From Candidatus Aenigmatarchaeota archaeon (GTDB lineage Archaea > Aenigmatarchaeota > Aenigmatarchaeia > CG10238-14 > SCSR01), in the NCBI GenBank assembly GCA_038998335.1, contig JAVZHQ010000001.1:640001-704000 (forward strand): DNA of 64,000 nt. The letters are read 5' to 3'. How positions within the stretch are numbered: position 1 is the first letter of the stretch; each line of letters opens with the position of its first letter. A program made the translations under genes and the position numbers. Below are positions 8,670-20,820 of this stretch, piece after piece. A model generated the notes under the pieces. It was not told the origin of the DNA. It did not search any database and saw nothing but the letters and a program-made list of their open reading frames with translations.

Positions 8670-9329
8670 ATGAAAACTATTGAAAAAAACTTTGAAAAGG
8701 GTTTTGTAAGGCTTATTCCTGAGAATTTTTTAGACTTATGGCATCTTTCTAAAATAATTGAAGTTAAAGATAGAATAACAGCTAGAACTACAAGAAACAT
8801 TTTTGTTGAAAGAGAAGGAAAAAAGGAAAAATCAAGAAAAGTTGCTTTAGTTCTTTCTCTCGAAGTAGAAAAAGTTGAGCTAGAAAAAAATAAGTTAAGA
8901 ATAAAGGGAAAGATAGTAGAAGCTCCGGAAGAAGTTCAAAAAGGAAGTTATCACACGATTGAAATTCTTATAGGAAATAGTTTTACTTTAGAGAAAAAAG
9001 AGTGGAAAAAAGAACAAGTAGAAAAAATAGAAAAACTAACAAAAAGAATTAAAAAAGCTACTTCGCTGAAAGAGTTTTTTGTTCATATAAACAAGCTTGA
9101 CGGCTTAGCAATTTATGGTTTGGAAGAAGTTAGAAACGCTGCTTTAATTGGAGCGATAAAAATTCTTTTTGTTCCTTTTGAAAATTTGAGTGAAAAAATT
9201 GAGGAAGTAATAGAAGAGGTGGAGAAAAAAGGCGGAGAAATAGAGTTCGTTAGCGAGAAGGAAGAGCTTGGTAAAAAATTTTTGAAAGAACATGGAATTG
9301 GAGCAATTCTCAGGTTTAAAATTAGCTAG
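8670..9329 (+). CDS. pelA: Pelota/Dom34 homolog lacking the middle domain
   Basis: N-domain PEN.LDLWHL...LRIKG...GSYHTI joined directly to C-domain YGLEEV..A...GAI...GIGAILRF; 219 aa. Confidence 0.75.
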   Translation: MKTIEKNFEKGFVRLIPENFLDLWHLSKIIEVKDRITARTTRNIFVEREGKKEKSRKVALVLSLEVEKVELEKNKLRIKGKIVEAPEEVQKGSYHTIEILIGNSFTLEKKEWKKEQVEKIEKLTKRIKKATSLKEFFVHINKLDGLAIYGLEEVRNAALIGAIKILFVPFENLSEKIEEVIEEVEKKGGEIEFVSEKEELGKKFLKEHGIGAILRFKIS

Positions 9330-9546: not shown

Positions 9547-10113
9547 CTAAGGTGTGACTCTTGATAAAGAATAATAAGTTACATCTCCTTCCTTATCTAC
9601 AACAGCCCACCACATAGTAGCTCTTATGTTGTGTGCAAGCCTAACTGCACGAGACATTTCTGGTAATGAAAAAGCAGCTTCCTCAGCAACTGCATGAACT
9701 ATTGCTTTTGTATGCTCATGAGGTGCTTTTGGTCCTCTCTTCAGTTTAACTCCTCTTTCATAAAGTCTAAAGTGAGCACCAAACTTGAAACCAGTTTTAA
9801 CAAGATAACCTCTATTCCTTAAGTCCCGATAAACTATAAATTGTGGATGAAATTGGTTAACATTTTTTGTTCCTATTTCTATTAATTCAGAAAGTTCGAT
9901 TTTTCTTTTTTTATCATTTTCTTTAACAAAAACTCTAATCTTTCCCTTTTCAAGTAAGTAAGCAGCCTCTACCAAATCCAACTCAAGTCTGTTTGGGTTT
10001 TCTTCTGGTAACGGTTTACCATAACCAGAATCATCGTAAAGAATTACTGCTTCAGGATCCCAAATTATTACTCTATTTTCTAATAGTTCACCTTCCCAAA
10101 CTTTTTCGCTCAT
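9547..10113 (-). CDS. endA: tRNA-splicing endonuclease subunit
   Basis: LVEAAYL, VYRDLRNRGY.VKTGFKFG..FRLY, H, AVVD.EGDVTYY. Confidence 0.92.
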   Translation of the reverse strand: MSEKVWEGELLENRVIIWDPEAVILYDDSGYGKPLPEENPNRLELDLVEAAYLLEKGKIRVFVKENDKKRKIELSELIEIGTKNVNQFHPQFIVYRDLRNRGYLVKTGFKFGAHFRLYERGVKLKRGPKAPHEHTKAIVHAVAEEAAFSLPEMSRAVRLAHNIRATMWWAVVDKEGDVTYYSLSRVTP

Positions 10114-10660: not shown

Positions 10661-10863
10661 AATTAAATAATGGTTAAAAGAATAAAAAGAATTAACTAGT
10701 TAAAATTTTTTAGTAGTTTTAAAACAATAAAAAATTATGCATTCAAAAATTGAAACTTGTTATGAAAAAATTTGTAAAATGGCAAGAGTTGCCTCAAGCG
10801 TTAATAGAGAATATGTATAAAAACTTATGGGACAGGAGGGATTTGAACCCTCGACACACCGGT

Positions 10864-10875
10864 AACCGCTTAGTT
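10864..10875 (-). other. 12-nt tRNA intron at canonical 37/38 position
   Basis: AACTAAGCGGTT inserted after G37; relaxed BHL-type pairing. Confidence 0.8.
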
Positions 10876-10904
10876 CTTCAGCCGGTTGCTCTCCCGGGCT
10901 GAGC

Positions 10905-10921
10905 TTACAGCACATTAGTGA
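10905..10921 (-). other. 17-nt BHB intron at tRNA position 9/10
   Basis: GGG[ACAG]TA^T-CAC-TAAT-GTG-[CTGT]AA^G-CTC is a strict BHB. Confidence 0.85.
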
Positions 10922-11711
10922 TACTGTCCCTACGACTGTCCCATTTCCTACATAATAAAATGGTTTCTAATTTATTTTGCTTGTTTAGATTTTGAAATCC
11001 TATCTCCTCTTTAAAATTAATTAATGAATTTAACCTTTTAATACGTAACCTTATTCCACAAGTTATTACCCCATCCTTTCGTACATTGAGTGTGTTTGAT
11101 ATAAATATTGTTGATTTTATATTAAAGAATTTTTCAAGACCTTCTTTAATCTCATTTAAGAATTGGAAACCATTATCAAGTAAATTTTGGGATTTCCACA
11201 TTTCCAAACCTATAAATGGGTTGTGTTTGCTGATGTCGACCGTGCCTTCACAATTGAAAACCATCCTAACAAAACTTCTGAAACACTCTTTTTCGTTTTT
11301 AATCCAAGTTGGTACAGAAAACTCTTGCATTACCTTACAACCTTTTGGAACCCCTACTAAATGAAGTACTCTACTCAACAATTTACAATTCACGCCAAAA
11401 TTGAAAGTTTTTCCAAATTTGTTTCCCTTACAAGGCCTCACTCTTCCTTTGATACCGAACAAATTAAAAATTTCATTTCCAAATATTTCTAACTCTTGGA
11501 GATCTTTTGAAGTAAAATCAAATCTCCATTTAGGTTCACCTTGGAGATGCCCATCACACATCAAGGCTGCAACTATAGATGCTAGTTGTGGAGAAGAACG
11601 AACAGGAAACCAATTGCTATGTAAATTAATTGAATTTATTGCATGATCTCTCGATTTGAATAACTTTATTACATCTTCTTCAGTTACTAAAATCTCACTC
11701 ATTTTTAACAC
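10905..11711 (-). CDS. Free-standing double-motif LAGLIDADG homing endonuclease
   Basis: Motifs LASIVAALMCDGHL and FVRMVFNCEGTV; no intein splice residues seen; ORF runs into the tRNA-Phe 5' exon. Confidence 0.85.
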   Translation of the reverse strand: MLKMSEILVTEEDVIKLFKSRDHAINSINLHSNWFPVRSSPQLASIVAALMCDGHLQGEPKWRFDFTSKDLQELEIFGNEIFNLFGIKGRVRPCKGNKFGKTFNFGVNCKLLSRVLHLVGVPKGCKVMQEFSVPTWIKNEKECFRSFVRMVFNCEGTVDISKHNPFIGLEMWKSQNLLDNGFQFLNEIKEGLEKFFNIKSTIFISNTLNVRKDGVITCGIRLRIKRLNSLINFKEEIGFQNLNKQNKLETILLCRKWDSRRDSITNVL

Positions 11712-13323: not shown

Positions 13324-13833
13324 ATGAAAAAACTAACTACCAAACAATACGTTTCAATATTTTTTTTAATACTCCTTGCGTTTTTCTTTTTAAGTTTTGC
13401 AGAAATAGCAGTAGAAGGTCCTTATGGAGGAGCGACTAAGAGTTATGGTTGGAAGATTCAGATTTATGATTCTGTCTATCTAAGAGAGTATCACTTTTTT
13501 CTATTTTATTTAACAATACCAACACTACTTTCAATTTCTATAATCTTAGTTGGGTTTGATTTAAGATTAATCAGTATTTTAATTTTAGGGTATTCAATTG
13601 GTAGTATTTTAGAAGACTTTTGTTGGTTTGCTTTTAACCCTTACTACGGAATCCACAAATTTTCGCCAGAATTTTATACCTGGACCATTTGGATAAATGT
13701 TTTAGGTTTAAAAATCCCTATACTGTACTTCATTTACTCACTAATAATTCTTGCTGATGTTTTCTTTATTTTAAAAATAATCCCAATTATCGAAAAACAT
13801 AAACAAAATAAACCAGAAATGTTCGGATTTTAA
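13324..13833 (+). CDS. Hypothetical membrane protein
   Basis: 169 aa, about 4 TM segments, EDFCWF.FNP motif. Confidence 0.6.
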   Translation: MKKLTTKQYVSIFFLILLAFFFLSFAEIAVEGPYGGATKSYGWKIQIYDSVYLREYHFFLFYLTIPTLLSISIILVGFDLRLISILILGYSIGSILEDFCWFAFNPYYGIHKFSPEFYTWTIWINVLGLKIPILYFIYSLIILADVFFILKIIPIIEKHKQNKPEMFGF

Positions 13834-13838
13834 TTTAG

Positions 13839-13925
13839 CGCCCTCGCTGGGATTTGAACCCAGGACCTACCGGTTAACAGCCGGGTGCTCTACCACTGAG
13901 CTTTCCTCGTAATTACTACGAGGGC
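13839..13925 (-). tRNA. tRNA-Asn(GTT) with intron at 8/9
   Basis: Removing 13903..13917 gives GCCCTCGTAGCTCAGTGGTAGAGCACCCGGCTGTTAACCGGTAGGTCCTGGGTTCAAATCCCAGCGAGGGCG. Confidence 0.9.
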
Positions 13926-14676
13926 TGCGAGGGCTTAATATATTTTTTAACAACTTGTTTTCATCAATTAAATATTCTTCTATACTTTTATAGAATTTCC
14001 TTAAATTATTAGGCGTTATAACAAAAACTTTATAACCTCTTTGTTGTAAATCCTTTATCTTCTTTTTTAATTTCATAGCTTTATCAAAACCTTTCCACAT
14101 GCTACATTCTACAATAAGGTTACCAACCTTGAAATCTGGGAAATAATATTTTTTATTGACATTTATACAAGGTTCGTATTGATAATTTATTCCAAATTGA
14201 AATAATGTATCAGCAATTTTCTTTTCTAAAGTATTTCTGACGAGTTCACCACGTTTGGTTTTAAATTTGTAGCTTCCAATCTTCTTAAACCGTTCATATT
14301 GCTCTAAGAAATATTTTTCACCTAATTCTTTTCTAAGTTTTTTATGTAACCTGCTAGAAGCTTTTTTCATCTTAATTAGATTTTTTCTGAATGTTTTGCT
14401 TCTAACCTTCTTTAAGTAGCTGGCTTTACCACCAATCCTTTGTTTCCAGTTTTTATCTAACCGTTTTTGAATAATTTGCACGATATCAACTTCTTCTAAA
14501 CCTAAAAATTTCATGAGTTTGTTAAGAACATATCGAGAAATAGGTCTACCTTTATGTTTATAATAATATATTGCAGATTTCACTACATTTAAGGTTTTTG
14601 CCAACTTTCTTTCACTACCAGCCTTTTTTATGGCCATGTTAATTATGTTTTTCTGATCTTTTAATTTAAAATACAT
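13867..14676 (-). CDS. HTH + PD-(D/E)XK-type nuclease, putative free-standing homing endonuclease
   Basis: N-terminal HTH-like SERKLAKTLNVVKSAIYYY; C-terminal GELVRNTLEKKIAD.L...I.Y.YEP...YFPDF...IVE; very basic; reads into tRNA-Asn. Confidence 0.7.
   Translation of the reverse strand: MYFKLKDQKNIINMAIKKAGSERKLAKTLNVVKSAIYYYKHKGRPISRYVLNKLMKFLGLEEVDIVQIIQKRLDKNWKQRIGGKASYLKKVRSKTFRKNLIKMKKASSRLHKKLRKELGEKYFLEQYERFKKIGSYKFKTKRGELVRNTLEKKIADTLFQFGINYQYEPCINVNKKYYFPDFKVGNLIVECSMWKGFDKAMKLKKKIKDLQQRGYKVFVITPNNLRKFYKSIEEYLIDENKLLKNILSPRSPRSNYEESSVVEHPAVNR
13903..13917 (-). other. 15-nt BHB intron at tRNA position 8/9
   Basis: AGC[CCTC]GT^A-GT-AATT-AC-[GAGG]AA^A-GCT is a strict BHB. Confidence 0.85.
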
Positions 14677-14712
14677 AATAAAAACTTTGTTTATTACTAT
14701 TTAAAGTTACTT

Positions 14713-14731
14713 CCAACTGAGCTACGAGGGC
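14713..14731 (-). repeat. Orphan intron-less 5' fragment of tRNA-Asn
   Basis: GCCCTCGTAGCTCAGTTGG; the first 16 nt equal the spliced tRNA-Asn 5' end. Confidence 0.85.
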
Positions 14732-14781
14732 TTTTAAACTACTAATATATTATTAGAAAAAATTTTAAAAGTAAGTTTAAT

Positions 14782-15855
14782 CTAAGGTAAGAAATCCTTT
14801 TTCTCTATTTTTTCTGGCAAATAGTTTTCTGTTATAAATTTCAGGCCTTTTCCTGACAAAGCTTCCAACTCAGCTTTTATTTTCCTTTCAATCATAAGCT
14901 TAAGCTCTTTTTGCCAGACTGGATGTTTGAACCATTCATAATTCAACATTTCTTTTGCTCTTTTTATGTCAACCTCTTCTGCTTTTATAGTAAAATCTTT
15001 TAAACCAAACTTATCTATGTCGCTTATCGTTAAACCTAAAAATTTTGCGTTTGGTGTACCAAGTCTGTCAGAAACATGAGCTAAGCTCATCGAGCCATAT
15101 TTTATAACCGAATAAATGTACCAACCGTAACTGTCTGCATCAGTAAAAACATAAACTGGAAGGTTAAACTCTGTAGCCAATCTTTGAATTAATCTTCTTG
15201 TCCCTCTTGCAGCCTGACCTTGAGTTGTGACTAAAATACACTTGTGTTTTTTCCAAAACTTATCCTCATGCAACCTTTCAAAAGCTGCGTTCTTTTCTAT
15301 AACAAGAATAAAATTAGCGTTAACTTTTTTAAATTCTAAATCTTCTACGTTGCTTGGGATAGCCCAACCCCCTGAACCAAGCTTTGACCAATCAATAGTG
15401 TCTCCTCTATCTCTAATTATCACATCACCTACAACCCTTCCTCTTACGTCAGCGTTTAAATGTAGCTGTTCTCTTAAAACATCTAGCATAACTTCTAAAT
15501 CAACAACTATAGGATCACTTTCATTTTGTTCGTTGAACGTGTTTTCCTGAGAGTTTGGTAAAGTTCTTTTCAAGGCATAAAACAAATCCCTTAGGCTTGT
15601 ATGAAGGTTTTGCTCTAGTAATTCCTTACAAAAAGCAGCAACTAACATAGTTTGCATAAATTTCTTTGCATGTCCAGTGTGAAACAAAAATCTTTTTGCA
15701 GTTTTTTCTCCTAAGGTTAGCATTCCTGTTTTTTTATCGTAAATAATATTAGAAAGTGAACGAATAGGAACTTCTATGTTTGGGTTCTCTTTTTTCTCTA
15801 TATCACTTAGAACTTTTTTCCCTAAATCTTCAAGTTTTTTCTTCGTTTCTTTCAT
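14782..15855 (-). CDS. top6A: DNA topoisomerase VI subunit A
   Basis: SLRDLFY catalytic Tyr, IEK, TDAD.YG toprim motifs, KAELEAL. Confidence 0.96.
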   Translation of the reverse strand: MKETKKKLEDLGKKVLSDIEKKENPNIEVPIRSLSNIIYDKKTGMLTLGEKTAKRFLFHTGHAKKFMQTMLVAAFCKELLEQNLHTSLRDLFYALKRTLPNSQENTFNEQNESDPIVVDLEVMLDVLREQLHLNADVRGRVVGDVIIRDRGDTIDWSKLGSGGWAIPSNVEDLEFKKVNANFILVIEKNAAFERLHEDKFWKKHKCILVTTQGQAARGTRRLIQRLATEFNLPVYVFTDADSYGWYIYSVIKYGSMSLAHVSDRLGTPNAKFLGLTISDIDKFGLKDFTIKAEEVDIKRAKEMLNYEWFKHPVWQKELKLMIERKIKAELEALSGKGLKFITENYLPEKIEKKDFLP

Positions 15856-17497
15856 TTCCAACTACCTCTTTTAAAGTTGTCTGCTTTACCTTTTTAATTT
15901 TTTCCTCTTGCTTTTCTTTTTCAATTTCTTCTTCAGCTTTACTTTCCATTTCCTCTATTGTTAAGTCAACTTTTTTCTTTATCATTTCTTCCAATTTCTT
16001 CAAAATAGTTTTGTAATCTTTATTTGTAAGTTTTGCCACCGCTCTTGCAACTTCTGGCACATACCTTTCAAATATTTGTCTTCTTAAAAGCCTTTCTCTT
16101 GCTTTTCTCTTTTGTCTTATATAGCTTGCAAGCTTCCTTCCTGCATCTTGTAAAGCAAGTTTTATTTCTTTAACAATTTCTGGATAGTTAGCTATTGCCT
16201 GCTTTCCTTCAGAAGTAAAAGGAACCCAAACAGAAGCAAAATGAACAAGAATTGCTAAAGGTCCTACAGGTAAAGAGCCTGCTGATTGTTGTAAGCCATA
16301 TCTTCTCCAATCAACTTCTGCTATTGCTTCTGTTATTGCACAATCTCCTTGATGGTAAAGTAAAGGAACCTTATTCGCAAACCTTAAAATTTTTGCAGTT
16401 TCATTTTCTTGTAACTTTCCTCCATAGGCTAAACCACATTCAACTAAAAATGGATAACCTCTATAAACTGTTGGTGGTCTAGAAACAGCAACATAATACT
16501 CAGCCTCTATTTCTTTTTTCAAACCCTCCTCTATTAACTTTTCTGTTAGCGGAGATAGACAATTTGTTGGTGGAGACATAAGCTTAACCATTTGCATAGC
16601 TTTATGTAACTTTTCAGATTCTTCTGGAGTAAGGTCTTGTGGTTTTCTGTTGAGTTCAATTTTTGCTAGCTTACAAATTTGTTCTGCAGAATTTTTTCCA
16701 ACTCTGCAGAACTCTGTTGTCAAAAAGCTAAGCATATTCTTTGCTTTTGTATCCTTAAGCATTCTTCTCAAAATCCCAAGCTCAACGCCATAAGGATGAG
16801 GTTTAATTTCTTTTGGTTGGGCAGGAATTTCGTTAATTGTTCTTTCAAACTCTATTTTTCCGTTTGGACCATCAAAAATGATACGAGCATAAGGATTGAC
16901 TATTGCTGTTTGTTTTATGTATTCTAAAACGGAAGGTGGTTTTTCTGTGTACCTTCCTTCTATTTCCATCTCTATTCTTACACCATGCCATTTTTTTGAA
17001 TTTTTTTCTTTCTTGAAAGAAATTATGTGAGGCTCATTTTTTGCAACGTCTATCATAAGTTCAAAAATTGTAATATCTTTGCCTGTGCTTGTAATAATTT
17101 TTGTTGGTTTGCCTGTAGTTAATTGAGAATATAGAATTGCACCATGGATGCCTAAACCTTGAACTCCTCGACTTTGTCTAAGCCTATGGAACTTACTTCC
17201 GTACAAAAACTTACCAAAAGCATAAGGTACTTTTGATTCAACTACTCCTGGGCCGTTATCTTCAACTATAACTTTAAACCTATCGATGCCAACTTGCTTA
17301 ACTGAAACATAAATTTCTGGTAAAATGTTTGCTTCATTGGTGGCATCTAACGCGTTATCTAAAGCCTCTTTTACTACTGTAATCAAACTTTTTGTTGGAT
17401 TTTCATAACCTAACAAATGCCTATTTTTCTCGAAAAATTCTGCTACACTAACTTCTCTCATTTCCTTTGCCATTTTTTCAGCAATACTCTCTTCCAT
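15830..17497 (-). CDS. top6B: DNA topoisomerase VI subunit B
   Basis: SVAEFFEKN, EALDNALDA, EDNGPG, SRGVQGLG GHKL motifs, RFANKVPL. Confidence 0.97.
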   Translation of the reverse strand: MEESIAEKMAKEMREVSVAEFFEKNRHLLGYENPTKSLITVVKEALDNALDATNEANILPEIYVSVKQVGIDRFKVIVEDNGPGVVESKVPYAFGKFLYGSKFHRLRQSRGVQGLGIHGAILYSQLTTGKPTKIITSTGKDITIFELMIDVAKNEPHIISFKKEKNSKKWHGVRIEMEIEGRYTEKPPSVLEYIKQTAIVNPYARIIFDGPNGKIEFERTINEIPAQPKEIKPHPYGVELGILRRMLKDTKAKNMLSFLTTEFCRVGKNSAEQICKLAKIELNRKPQDLTPEESEKLHKAMQMVKLMSPPTNCLSPLTEKLIEEGLKKEIEAEYYVAVSRPPTVYRGYPFLVECGLAYGGKLQENETAKILRFANKVPLLYHQGDCAITEAIAEVDWRRYGLQQSAGSLPVGPLAILVHFASVWVPFTSEGKQAIANYPEIVKEIKLALQDAGRKLASYIRQKRKARERLLRRQIFERYVPEVARAVAKLTNKDYKTILKKLEEMIKKKVDLTIEEMESKAEEEIEKEKQEEKIKKVKQTTLKEVVGNERNEEKT

Positions 17498-20747: not shown

Positions 20748-20820
20748 GCCCCGGTAGCTCAGCTGGTAGAGCATCTGACTTGTAATCAGAGGGTCGGGGG
20801 TTCAAATCCCCCCCGGGGCT
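20748..20820 (+). tRNA. tRNA-Thr(TGT), no intron
   Basis: Acceptor GCCCCGG/CCGGGGC, anticodon arm TCTGA-CTTGTAA-TCAGA, T loop TTCAAAT. Confidence 0.95.

Follow-up and report, generated by a model that had tools for sequence, protein, structure and literature searches.

At one place in a 64-kb stretch of the genome of a Candidatus Aenigmatarchaeota archaeon ("the window" below means this whole stretch of 64,000 nucleotides), the first letters of a tRNA gene stand by themselves behind top6A, the gene for topoisomerase VI subunit A. Read from the DNA, this 19-mer is quite likely the stranded start of a tRNA-Asn gene that once lay directly after top6A and that now has a cassette of about 0.8 kb inside it. 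The cassette is probably mobile. It consists, in order, of a decayed older D arm, a TATA box, a leaderless gene for a nuclease with a helix-turn-helix (HTH) domain and a PD-(D/E)XK fold, a 9-nt extra copy of the acceptor strand lying at the end of the open reading frame (ORF), a replacement tRNA 5' end (nt 1 to 8), and a 15-nt intron between nt 8 and 9 (the 8/9 position). The layout is of the homing type in that the ORF lies between the stranded native end (14731..14713) and the replacement exon 1 (13925..13918). Four things were observed directly: the anatomy of the locus, a single site that holds the cassette in some close relatives and is empty in others, a layout that recurs across the DPANN archaea, and copies in the course of decay. 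From upstream to downstream, the left side of the insertion contains the following features:

14782..15861, minus strand: top6A, the upstream anchor gene (Pfam TOP6A-Spo11_Toprim, 3.4e-64; TP6A_N, 4e-18)
14781..14732, minus strand: AT-rich spacer with the AATAATATATTA tract, presumed original tRNA promoter, collinear with the spacers of two relatives (G005 and G003)
14731..14713, minus strand: GCCCTCGTAGCTCAGTTGG, putative fossil, the original tRNA-Asn 5' end left stranded; its nt 1-16 equal the spliced tRNA and are followed by TGG
14712..14706, minus strand: AAGTAAC, degenerate continuation (3' side of the decayed D arm) that appears to move with the cassette, judging by the G103 junction in another locus
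14705..14698, minus strand: TTTAAATA, putative TATA box of the cassette, ending 21 nt before the ATG at 14676

How specific is the remnant? The 19 letters of GCCCTCGTAGCTCAGTTGG have a single exact match within the window, and when up to 3 mismatches are allowed, the sole extra match is a genuine tRNA-Thr at 20748. At the same tolerance, 100 shuffles gave no match, ruling out a chance origin. Compared with the tRNA-Asn spliced in silico, the remnant is identical over its first 16 nt, straight across the 8/9 junction, after which it has TGG where the tRNA has GGT. An earlier reading of this DNA, made from the letters alone (the sequence-only reading), had claimed this 16-nt identity through the intron junction and an AT tract between top6A and the 19-mer. 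Base-by-base reading agrees on the first, and the spacer between the top6A stop and the remnant bears out the second. This spacer would hold the original tRNA promoter.

What did the locus look like before the cassette? Relatives supply the answer (G000 is the window's genome; other genomes, loci, and sequencing runs carry the handles G, L, and X). In G005 and G003, members of the same genus with top6A 93% identical, top6A is followed by a collinear AT spacer and then by a tRNA-Asn whose GCCCTCGTAGCTCAGTGGTAGAGC is uninterrupted. Both genes start exactly at the position of the remnant, and both lack the nuclease and the 8/9 intron. G013, from another genus, likewise has top6A and then an intron-less tRNA-Asn starting at the remnant's position, again without a nuclease. 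When G000 and G005 are aligned (170 of 215 columns identical), they are collinear through the end of top6A, the spacer, and tRNA nt 1-16, where the homology stops. G001, also of the same genus, has the filled allele nearly base for base as in the window. Finally, sequencing run X1 holds both states: a 4-kb contig from a relative of about 86% identity joins 14786 to 13874, which is the empty allele, and another contig in the same run has the filled one. The sequence-only reading had held that an ancestral, intron-less tRNA-Asn began at the remnant and had proposed an alignment with relatives as the check. Run here, that alignment gave top6A directly followed by a tRNA-Asn without the 8/9 intron at the remnant's position, as predicted, in G005, G003, G013, and the X1 contig. 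The empty alleles of the same genus have introns elsewhere, at 30/31 in G005 and at the canonical 37/38 in G003, and the filled alleles have neither. Co-conversion of the whole gene on invasion would fit this difference; later gain would fit equally well.

The neighboring topoisomerase VI genes vary in a way of their own. The top6A of G001 (L079/L081) is split at about residue 244 inside an 830-aa open frame, and top6B of G003 (contig 8) and G005 (contig 11) occupies frames of 1120 and 1089 aa, compared with 555 aa in the window. These large in-frame insertions of the relatives look like inteins, and the window is without them.

Where exactly did the cassette join the gene? About 10 nt beyond nt 16 (TTGGAAGTAA, remnant nt 17-26) look like a decayed D arm. 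They are shared with the cassette of G103, a genome of another genus in which the cassette occupies a different locus, and are not present in the local empty alleles. The local crossover would therefore lie within nt 1-16. Together with a TATA box that begins family-wide at remnant nt 27-30, this sharing suggests that the traveling cassette holds an older fossil reaching to about nt 26. The sequence-only reading had placed the entry of the element near nt 16-19. Identity to the local tRNA does end at nt 16, but nt 17-26 appear to belong to the cassette's own, older fossil. It had also proposed that the element brought a promoter-like motif at about 14697..14704; TTTAAATA is there, one base off, at 14705..14698. 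As the putative cassette promoter, TTTAAATA would be expected to give a leaderless mRNA.

The far end of the cassette is a rebuilt tRNA-Asn gene. Its body lies about 0.8 kb downstream of the remnant on the same strand, and its first 8 positions are absent from the Rfam tRNA match (48.9 bits, model positions 9-63, 13847..13902). These positions are supplied by a short exon ahead of an intron:

13934..13926, minus strand: GCCCTCGCA, extra proximal copy of the acceptor 5' strand, 9 nt, either an older fossil or a decoy strand, from sequence reading
13925..13918, minus strand: GCCCTCGT, putative working tRNA-Asn exon 1, nt 1-8, from base-by-base reading
13917..13903, minus strand: AGTAATTACGAGGAA, 15-nt intron at 8/9, whose GAGG can pair with exon nt 3-6, with 3-nt bulges GT/A and AA/A
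13902..13839, minus strand: tRNA-Asn(GTT) exon 2, nt 9-73, supported by Rfam (48.9 bits) and by ARAGORN after in-silico splicing

ARAGORN reports tRNA-Asn(GTT) only once the 15 nt are removed in silico and misses the unspliced gene; an interruption of this kind at 8/9 is why standard tRNA finders miss it. Can the host splice it? In archaea, a splice site of the bulge-helix-bulge (BHB) layout has two 3-nt bulges around a 4-bp helix. A BHB can be drawn here by hand, with exon nt 3-6 (CCTC) paired to the GAGG of the intron and 3-nt bulges GT/A and AA/A. The four pairs of the central helix are standard in all six modules compared (tRNA-Asn of G000, G023, G103, and G019; tRNA-Arg of G027; tRNA-Lys of G075). 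The tRNA-Lys copy of G075 shows two compensatory changes, with GCCC/GGGC in place of CCTC/GAGG, and a tRNA-Phe in G041 has, by eye, ACGG/CCGT in the exon-intron helix. The pairing of exon and intron is thus maintained by compensatory change across related modules. The genome also encodes an RNase P RNA and an EndA domain, the catalytic domain of tRNA-splicing endonuclease, the latter at 9574..9852 on the minus strand in a 193-aa frame that is the sole match in the genome. Splicing of the 15-nt intron by the host is therefore plausible. The EndA gene sits 4 kb from two oddly interrupted tRNA genes, this tRNA-Asn and a tRNA-Phe described below.

The extra acceptor copy is harder to place. Its complementarity to the 3' acceptor strand is perfect in every case, at 13926..13934 as well as at the equivalent positions in L012, L016, L035, L037, L045, and L048, and working exon 1 occasionally has a G.U pair (G103, G027, G065). 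In the minimum-energy fold of the precursor, the 3' strand takes the extra copy as its partner. Two roles are conceivable: a relic of the place where the host gene itself once started, or a decoy strand required for the splice site to fold. The copy at 13934 was considered as the true exon 1 and rejected on two grounds: no conserved T follows it (the modules have C, C, T, A, A, and G there), and the 3' junction has no T to give for position 8, at which the copy at 13925 always has one.

Might the remnant still be in use? One alternative would make 14723..13903 a single giant 8/9 intron with the nuclease gene inside it, comparable to the homing endonuclease genes found in archaeal rRNA introns. 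The 8 nt that begin at 14731 would then offer a second choice of 5' exon, with the GAGG near 13906 as their pairing partner too. Remnant nt 1-8 do equal exon 1, the original AT-rich spacer ahead of them is intact, and their in-silico union with exon 2 is also called tRNA-Asn by ARAGORN, which with the -i option spans 13838..14731 as a single gene; moreover, one homologue of the nuclease lies directly before 23S rRNA sequence. Against this, a complete local exon 1 stands 15 nt from exon 2, making long-range pairing unnecessary, and no long-range complementarity was found between the flank of the remnant and the flank of the tRNA. Remnants elsewhere (for example in L068, L049, and L055) lack acceptor complementarity, and ARAGORN's call treats the anticodon arm wrongly, as a variable arm. 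A giant intron is thus very unlikely. The same misdrawing accounts for an ARAGORN "tRNA-Leu with 800-nt intron," rejected as an artifact in which the tRNA-Asn anticodon arm serves as the variable arm. Split or trans-spliced tRNA halves were rejected as well: the inverted repeat of complementary flanks is absent, and the remnants are decayed in many loci.

The 3' side of the gene has features of its own. Between the tRNA-Asn 3' end and a macro-domain gene lies a 169-aa ORF (13324..13833, plus strand) without a Pfam match. In G001 this ORF is missing and the macro gene directly follows the tRNA, and G003 has neither ahead of the next shared gene, so the 3' flank of the tRNA is variable too among G000, G001, and G003. 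Elsewhere, the window's genome has a second tRNA-Asn gene on contig 1 (165506-165577). A third tRNA-Asn(GTT), on contig 5 at 8883..8958 (minus strand), has an encoded CCA and a bacterial look; its contig is 9 kb long, and it may be contamination or a mobile element.

What is the protein encoded by the cassette?

14676..13867, minus strand: nuclease ORF of 269 codons; its first stop falls inside the tRNA anticodon arm

The homologous part of the protein is its first 243 residues (14676..13948), an N-terminal HTH followed by a C-terminal domain of PD-(D/E)XK fold. A search of a large protein collection with these residues returned 81 homologues, all without names and all from DPANN lineages (Micrarchaeota, Woesearchaeota, Pacearchaeota, and Diapherotrites). 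Among 39 aligned homologues, R147-N148, E151, F179-P180-D181-F182, E190, W194, and K206 are invariant. The invariant P180-D181, E190, E151, and K206 may correspond to the D...(D/E)xK pattern of the superfamily, although the position two residues past E190 is not a lysine. The C termini of many homologues read ...ASVA(Q) or ...SPR...MPS, the translation of tRNA 5' ends; running into the tRNA gene is therefore a trait of the family. In one case (L039, on contig 45 of G051), a homologue with 34% identity over the nuclease domain lies directly before 23S rRNA sequence and may be a member of the family encoded within an rRNA intron.

The assignment of the fold rests on a confident AlphaFold model (predicted local distance difference test [pLDDT] of 90.9). 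In structure comparison, the N-terminal 70 residues resemble HTH domains of the Cro/CI type (Z up to 7.7). Residues ~126-243 align with restriction-endonuclease-like nucleases, namely, Bax1 (Z 8.5), AF1548 (8.3), TnsA (8.2), I-Bth0305I (7.4), and Vsr (6.9), and with several restriction enzymes. A restriction-endonuclease-like alpha/beta core is accordingly present in the modeled C-terminal domain. With Bax1, AF1548, and TnsA scoring equal to or above I-Bth0305I, the predicted fold gives no subfamily assignment. Other searches returned less. Foldseek against the PDB yielded nothing at E <= 0.001 and the same families at weak E-values; a sequence search of solved structures gave only weak HTH matches (E ~1); Pfam and NCBIfam gave none above cutoff and, again, weak HTH matches only; and PHROGs gave a weak "endonuclease" match (4.1e-07). 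Endonucleases of the I-Bth0305I type bear the family name EDxHD (PMC6083498), for an E-D-x-H-D catalytic motif. No conserved His-Asp pair of this EDxHD type occurs in the nuclease domain among the 39 aligned homologues.

If the ORF encodes a nuclease, could a recombinase acting in trans have made the insertion instead? In that case, attL and attR of site-specific recombination of the pNOB8/SSV type (Sugahara et al. 2012) would correspond to the remnant and the rebuilt 5' end, respectively, and the nuclease would be cargo. The insert indeed has direct repeats, made of the tRNA 5' part, on both sides, and a published report describes a case with the same layout, a recombinase gene, and a gained intron (PMC3293823). 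The insert, however, is only ~0.8 kb long, and its single ORF has a nuclease fold rather than a recombinase fold, with no match to a recombinase family in the Pfam, NCBIfam, and PHROGs searches. At the DNA level, the repeat is split by the intron into 10 and 8 nt. Finally, the same ORF family occurs with this layout in 26 DPANN loci, which makes the ORF itself the likely agent and a recombinase highly improbable.

How widespread is the cassette? Homologues of the nuclease are found in 10 of the 118 genomes of the order, including 2 of 6 in the window's genus (G000 and G001). In G103, an identical junction (...AGCTCAGTTGGAAGTAAATTTAAATA) lies behind a gene for a class II aminoacyl-tRNA synthetase (aaRS) and leads to the same kind of 8/9 intron, and the nuclease ORF is internally deleted. 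G024, a member of the genus of G103, has the empty aaRS-tRNA-Asn allele. G023 carries the remnant, the nuclease (64% identical), the extra copy, and the 8/9 intron in a third genomic context; in both G103 and G023, top6A is followed by another gene and not by a tRNA. In G065, of a different family, the set comprises remnant, TATA box, nuclease (47%), extra copy, and a tRNA-Asn with an intron in the D loop. Distant or decayed copies precede tRNA-Pro in G085, tRNA-Lys in G075, and tRNA-His in G073, the last two with stops.

An alignment of 12 sequences, searched against genome contigs, recovered 26 DPANN loci, a count from which two weak bacterial matches (L070 and L071) were excluded. Most loci end in tRNA-Asn: by reading, the final tRNA has a CTGTTA anticodon loop in 22 of the 25 loci printed, and the other three comprise one tRNA-Thr, one ambiguous tRNA, and one cut by the end of its contig. 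Do these loci also have a remnant? Ungapped matching of 16-mers upstream and downstream was too noisy in AT-rich DNA, in which shuffles reach 12-15/16, and a motif test was used instead. The motif G[CT][CT][CT]NNNTAGCTCA was searched in the 110 nt from -130 to -20 of the ORF in 28 loci (G000, L035, L036, and L045-L069; L044 was excluded because it is G001 itself). It is present without substitution in 11 of the 28 and with at most one in 17, compared with 8 and 145, respectively, of 20000 random 110-nt windows of the window's genome. Allowing up to 3 substitutions makes the test uninformative (25/28 loci, as against 858/2800 shuffles and 2037/5000 genomic windows). The distance from the start of the motif to the ORF is 54-61 nt in most loci, and a TATA-like octamer opens at remnant nt 27-30 in 15 of the 25 motif-bearing loci. 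One locus, L067, keeps the whole D arm before the TATA box, where a GG(A/G)AGCAA-like motif is found in 11 of 25 loci. The remnants range from perfect (G000 and G103) to badly decayed (L068, L055, and L049), a graded decay such as would be expected of nonfunctional fossils.

Has the cassette moved between lineages? Between G000 and G103, the retained parts of the nuclease are 83% identical, compared with 58% for top6A and 72% for top6B (the top6B match containing 2 TGA). A stronger argument for transfer is that an identical junction is found in different genomic contexts and that alleles coexist in single hot-spring runs. It might be supposed, alternatively, that nothing moved: long ago the tRNA 5' part would have been duplicated in place and have taken in a nuclease gene, and the whole would have descended vertically, with precise loss in many lineages. 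Short direct repeats could drive such precise loss, and the nuclease of G023, at 64%, is not more similar to that of the window than the host proteins are. An account of this kind would have to accommodate the same junction in a top6A-linked and an aaRS-linked context, the sporadic distribution already noted (10/118 genomes, 2/6 in the window's genus), a G103 nuclease more similar than two housekeeping proteins, and filled and empty alleles in the same hot-spring run. We consider it very improbable indeed.

Does the intron come with the nuclease? Within the clade, all four nuclease-bearing tRNA-Asn alleles (G000, G001, G023, and G103) have the 8/9 intron, compared with 1 of 18 nuclease-less alleles read in relatives (G019). 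The far remnant and the extra copy have 12 of 13 nt in common, so that deletion between them would give the state seen in G019 and in a contig of metagenome X8, and nucleases in decay are at hand, internally deleted in G103 and one X8 contig and stop-ridden in G075 and G073. The intron alleles without a nuclease (G019, X8) are read as later stages in which the nuclease would have been lost after arrival. The opposite order, module first and nuclease second, is possible at other genes.

Several observations weigh against the reading of the locus as a tRNA gene invaded by an intron-bearing nuclease cassette. Most concern the intron. In G019, the 8/9 intron is present and the extra 5' copy occupies the ancestral start, but neither this locus nor the rest of the genome has a nuclease (the homologue survey gave 0 of 1 for the genus). 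The X8 metagenome contig joins the end of top6A, via 25 other letters, to 13944; exon 1 and the intron are retained along with the extra copy, and no ORF is left. In G027, the first 8 nt and the intron of tRNA-Arg are nearly those of the Asn cassette, and a perfect Arg-type 5' strand is stranded just upstream. Only 3 kb away in the window, a tRNA-Phe(GAA) (~10942..10828, minus strand) has the same intron design with no nuclease beside it: an extra GGGACAG copy of the acceptor 5' strand, 5 nt, the start GGGACAGT, and a ~16-nt intron near 8/9 whose end pairs with the exon. This gene also has a 12-nt intron in the anticodon loop and is missed by ARAGORN. Seven relatives (G001-G004, G010, G019, and G041) have this design, whereas G012 and G038 lack it and have an intron-less tRNA-Phe; a genome-wide scan of G000 found duplicated acceptors only in tRNA-Phe and tRNA-Asn. 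The presence of the module in genes without a nuclease means that, at some loci, the intron could be older than the nuclease. Conversely, at least three cassettes (L049, L050, and L065) precede, by reading, a tRNA-Asn without any intron, so that an intron is not needed for the cassette to persist.

The remaining contrary points concern splicing, the remnant, and transfer. The outer helices of the BHB are just 2-3 bp long, and minimum-energy folding gives one unbroken 7-bp hairpin. Both cleavage by the nuclease and splicing of the intron are steps that we infer. The remnant is perfect (19/19 in common with G001 and G103) and retains its upstream AT tract, so some residual use is possible. As to transfer, the G000-G023 comparison is not discordant (nuclease, 64%; top6A, 76%; top6B, 66%), and top6A and top6B rank G103 and G023 in opposite orders; the identity evidence for horizontal transfer is therefore mixed and suggestive only. 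For the claim of the sequence-only reading that the intron arrived with the nuclease, the outcome is divided: the association stands, at 4/4 against 1/18, but the module is also found alone. An 8/9 intron in nuclease-less relatives, which that reading had named as contrary evidence, turns up in part, in G019 and the X8 contig, and both keep the extra 5' copy, as would fit loss of the nuclease.

How, then, might an invasion proceed? The nuclease would cut intron-less tRNA-Asn genes in the D-arm region, and the break would be repaired from a cassette-bearing copy. The left crossover would fall within the first ~16 nt of the tRNA, leaving the remnant, and the right crossover would fall in the tRNA body. 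The replacement 5' end would thereby join the rest of the gene, and the splicing endonuclease would remove the intron to give a working tRNA-Asn. Later, the nuclease gene would decay or be deleted between the short direct repeats, with the intron and a short extra 5' copy remaining. It is possible, although we are doubtful, that the intron shields the rebuilt gene from the nuclease. More generally, and tentatively, cassettes of this type might be a vehicle that seeds noncanonical introns into DPANN tRNA genes; the introns would arrive in the replacement 5' end, possibly act as a shield, and stay after the nuclease has decayed. Old scars of such a process would then be the G019 tRNA-Asn, the nuclease-less X8 contig, the chimeric G027 tRNA-Arg, and the tRNA-Phe design of the window, itself widely conserved.

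Overall, the locus bears on an unsettled question, the gain of archaeal tRNA introns at odd positions. It presents one way in which archaeal tRNA genes can acquire introns, with near relatives that have the same gene in three states: undisturbed, invaded by nuclease and intron, or left with the intron once the nuclease is gone. Since the protein is small and expressible, delivery of tRNA introns by a nuclease is directly testable. There is also a warning for annotation, in that the ORFs of this nuclease family run into tRNA genes.

In the literature searched, no description was found of this nuclease family or of PD-(D/E)XK cassettes in DPANN tRNA genes. A 2026 preprint on Asgard tRNA introns tests several routes and leaves the arrival of introns open (10.64898/2026.10.13.758758). 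Several known systems resemble the arrangement. At the level of the protein, the cassette nuclease is like I-Bth0305I (PDB 3r3p) in having a restriction-endonuclease-like fold (Z 7.4, root mean square deviation 3.0, 81 residues) and a separate DNA-binding domain, and unlike this EDxHD enzyme in having no significant sequence match to any solved chain and no invariant H-D pair. At the level of the element, the insert differs from the integrase-borne SSV/pNOB8 elements by having no match to a tyrosine recombinase gene.

In phages, collaborative homing couples a free-standing endonuclease to an intron without an ORF (reviewed in PMC3984707). Here, too, the nuclease gene lies outside the intron and adjoins the intron-bearing gene, and an intron that interrupts the target site would fit the layout. 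Phage introns, however, are self-splicing and of group I, with cleavage shown at the intron site, whereas the one here is of the protein-spliced archaeal type and some members of the family have none. Also alike in architecture are the mobile ORFs (mORFs) of fungal mitochondria (in atp6 of Allomyces and in atp6, atp9, cox2, and nad3 of Glomus), in which an endonuclease ORF brings a substitute gene end (PMC3630166). As in the mORFs, an endonuclease ORF lies inside a gene, the foreign end is the one expressed, and the native end is left as a duplicate. The mORFs replace 3' ends of organelle protein genes with LAGLIDADG or GIY-YIG enzymes, in contrast to the 5' end of an archaeal chromosomal tRNA gene affected here, whose replacement has an intron to be spliced out.

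A further parallel is the tRNA-Thr(GGU) of Caldiarchaeum subterraneum, where 1.8 kb of inserted DNA, encoding a putative DNA recombinase, separates a stranded 5' fragment from a rebuilt gene that has one intron more (PMC3293823). Sugahara et al. (2012) attributed the intron to delivery by a mobile element, through attP x attB recombination of a plasmid-like element (PMC3293823). The two loci are alike in having a stranded tRNA 5' fragment upstream and a rebuilt tRNA with a noncanonical intron at the far end. They differ in the insert between, which in Caldiarchaeum is 1.8 kb long with a putative recombinase and here is 0.8 kb long with an ORF of PD-(D/E)XK fold that overlaps the tRNA and belongs to a family found in several DPANN phyla.

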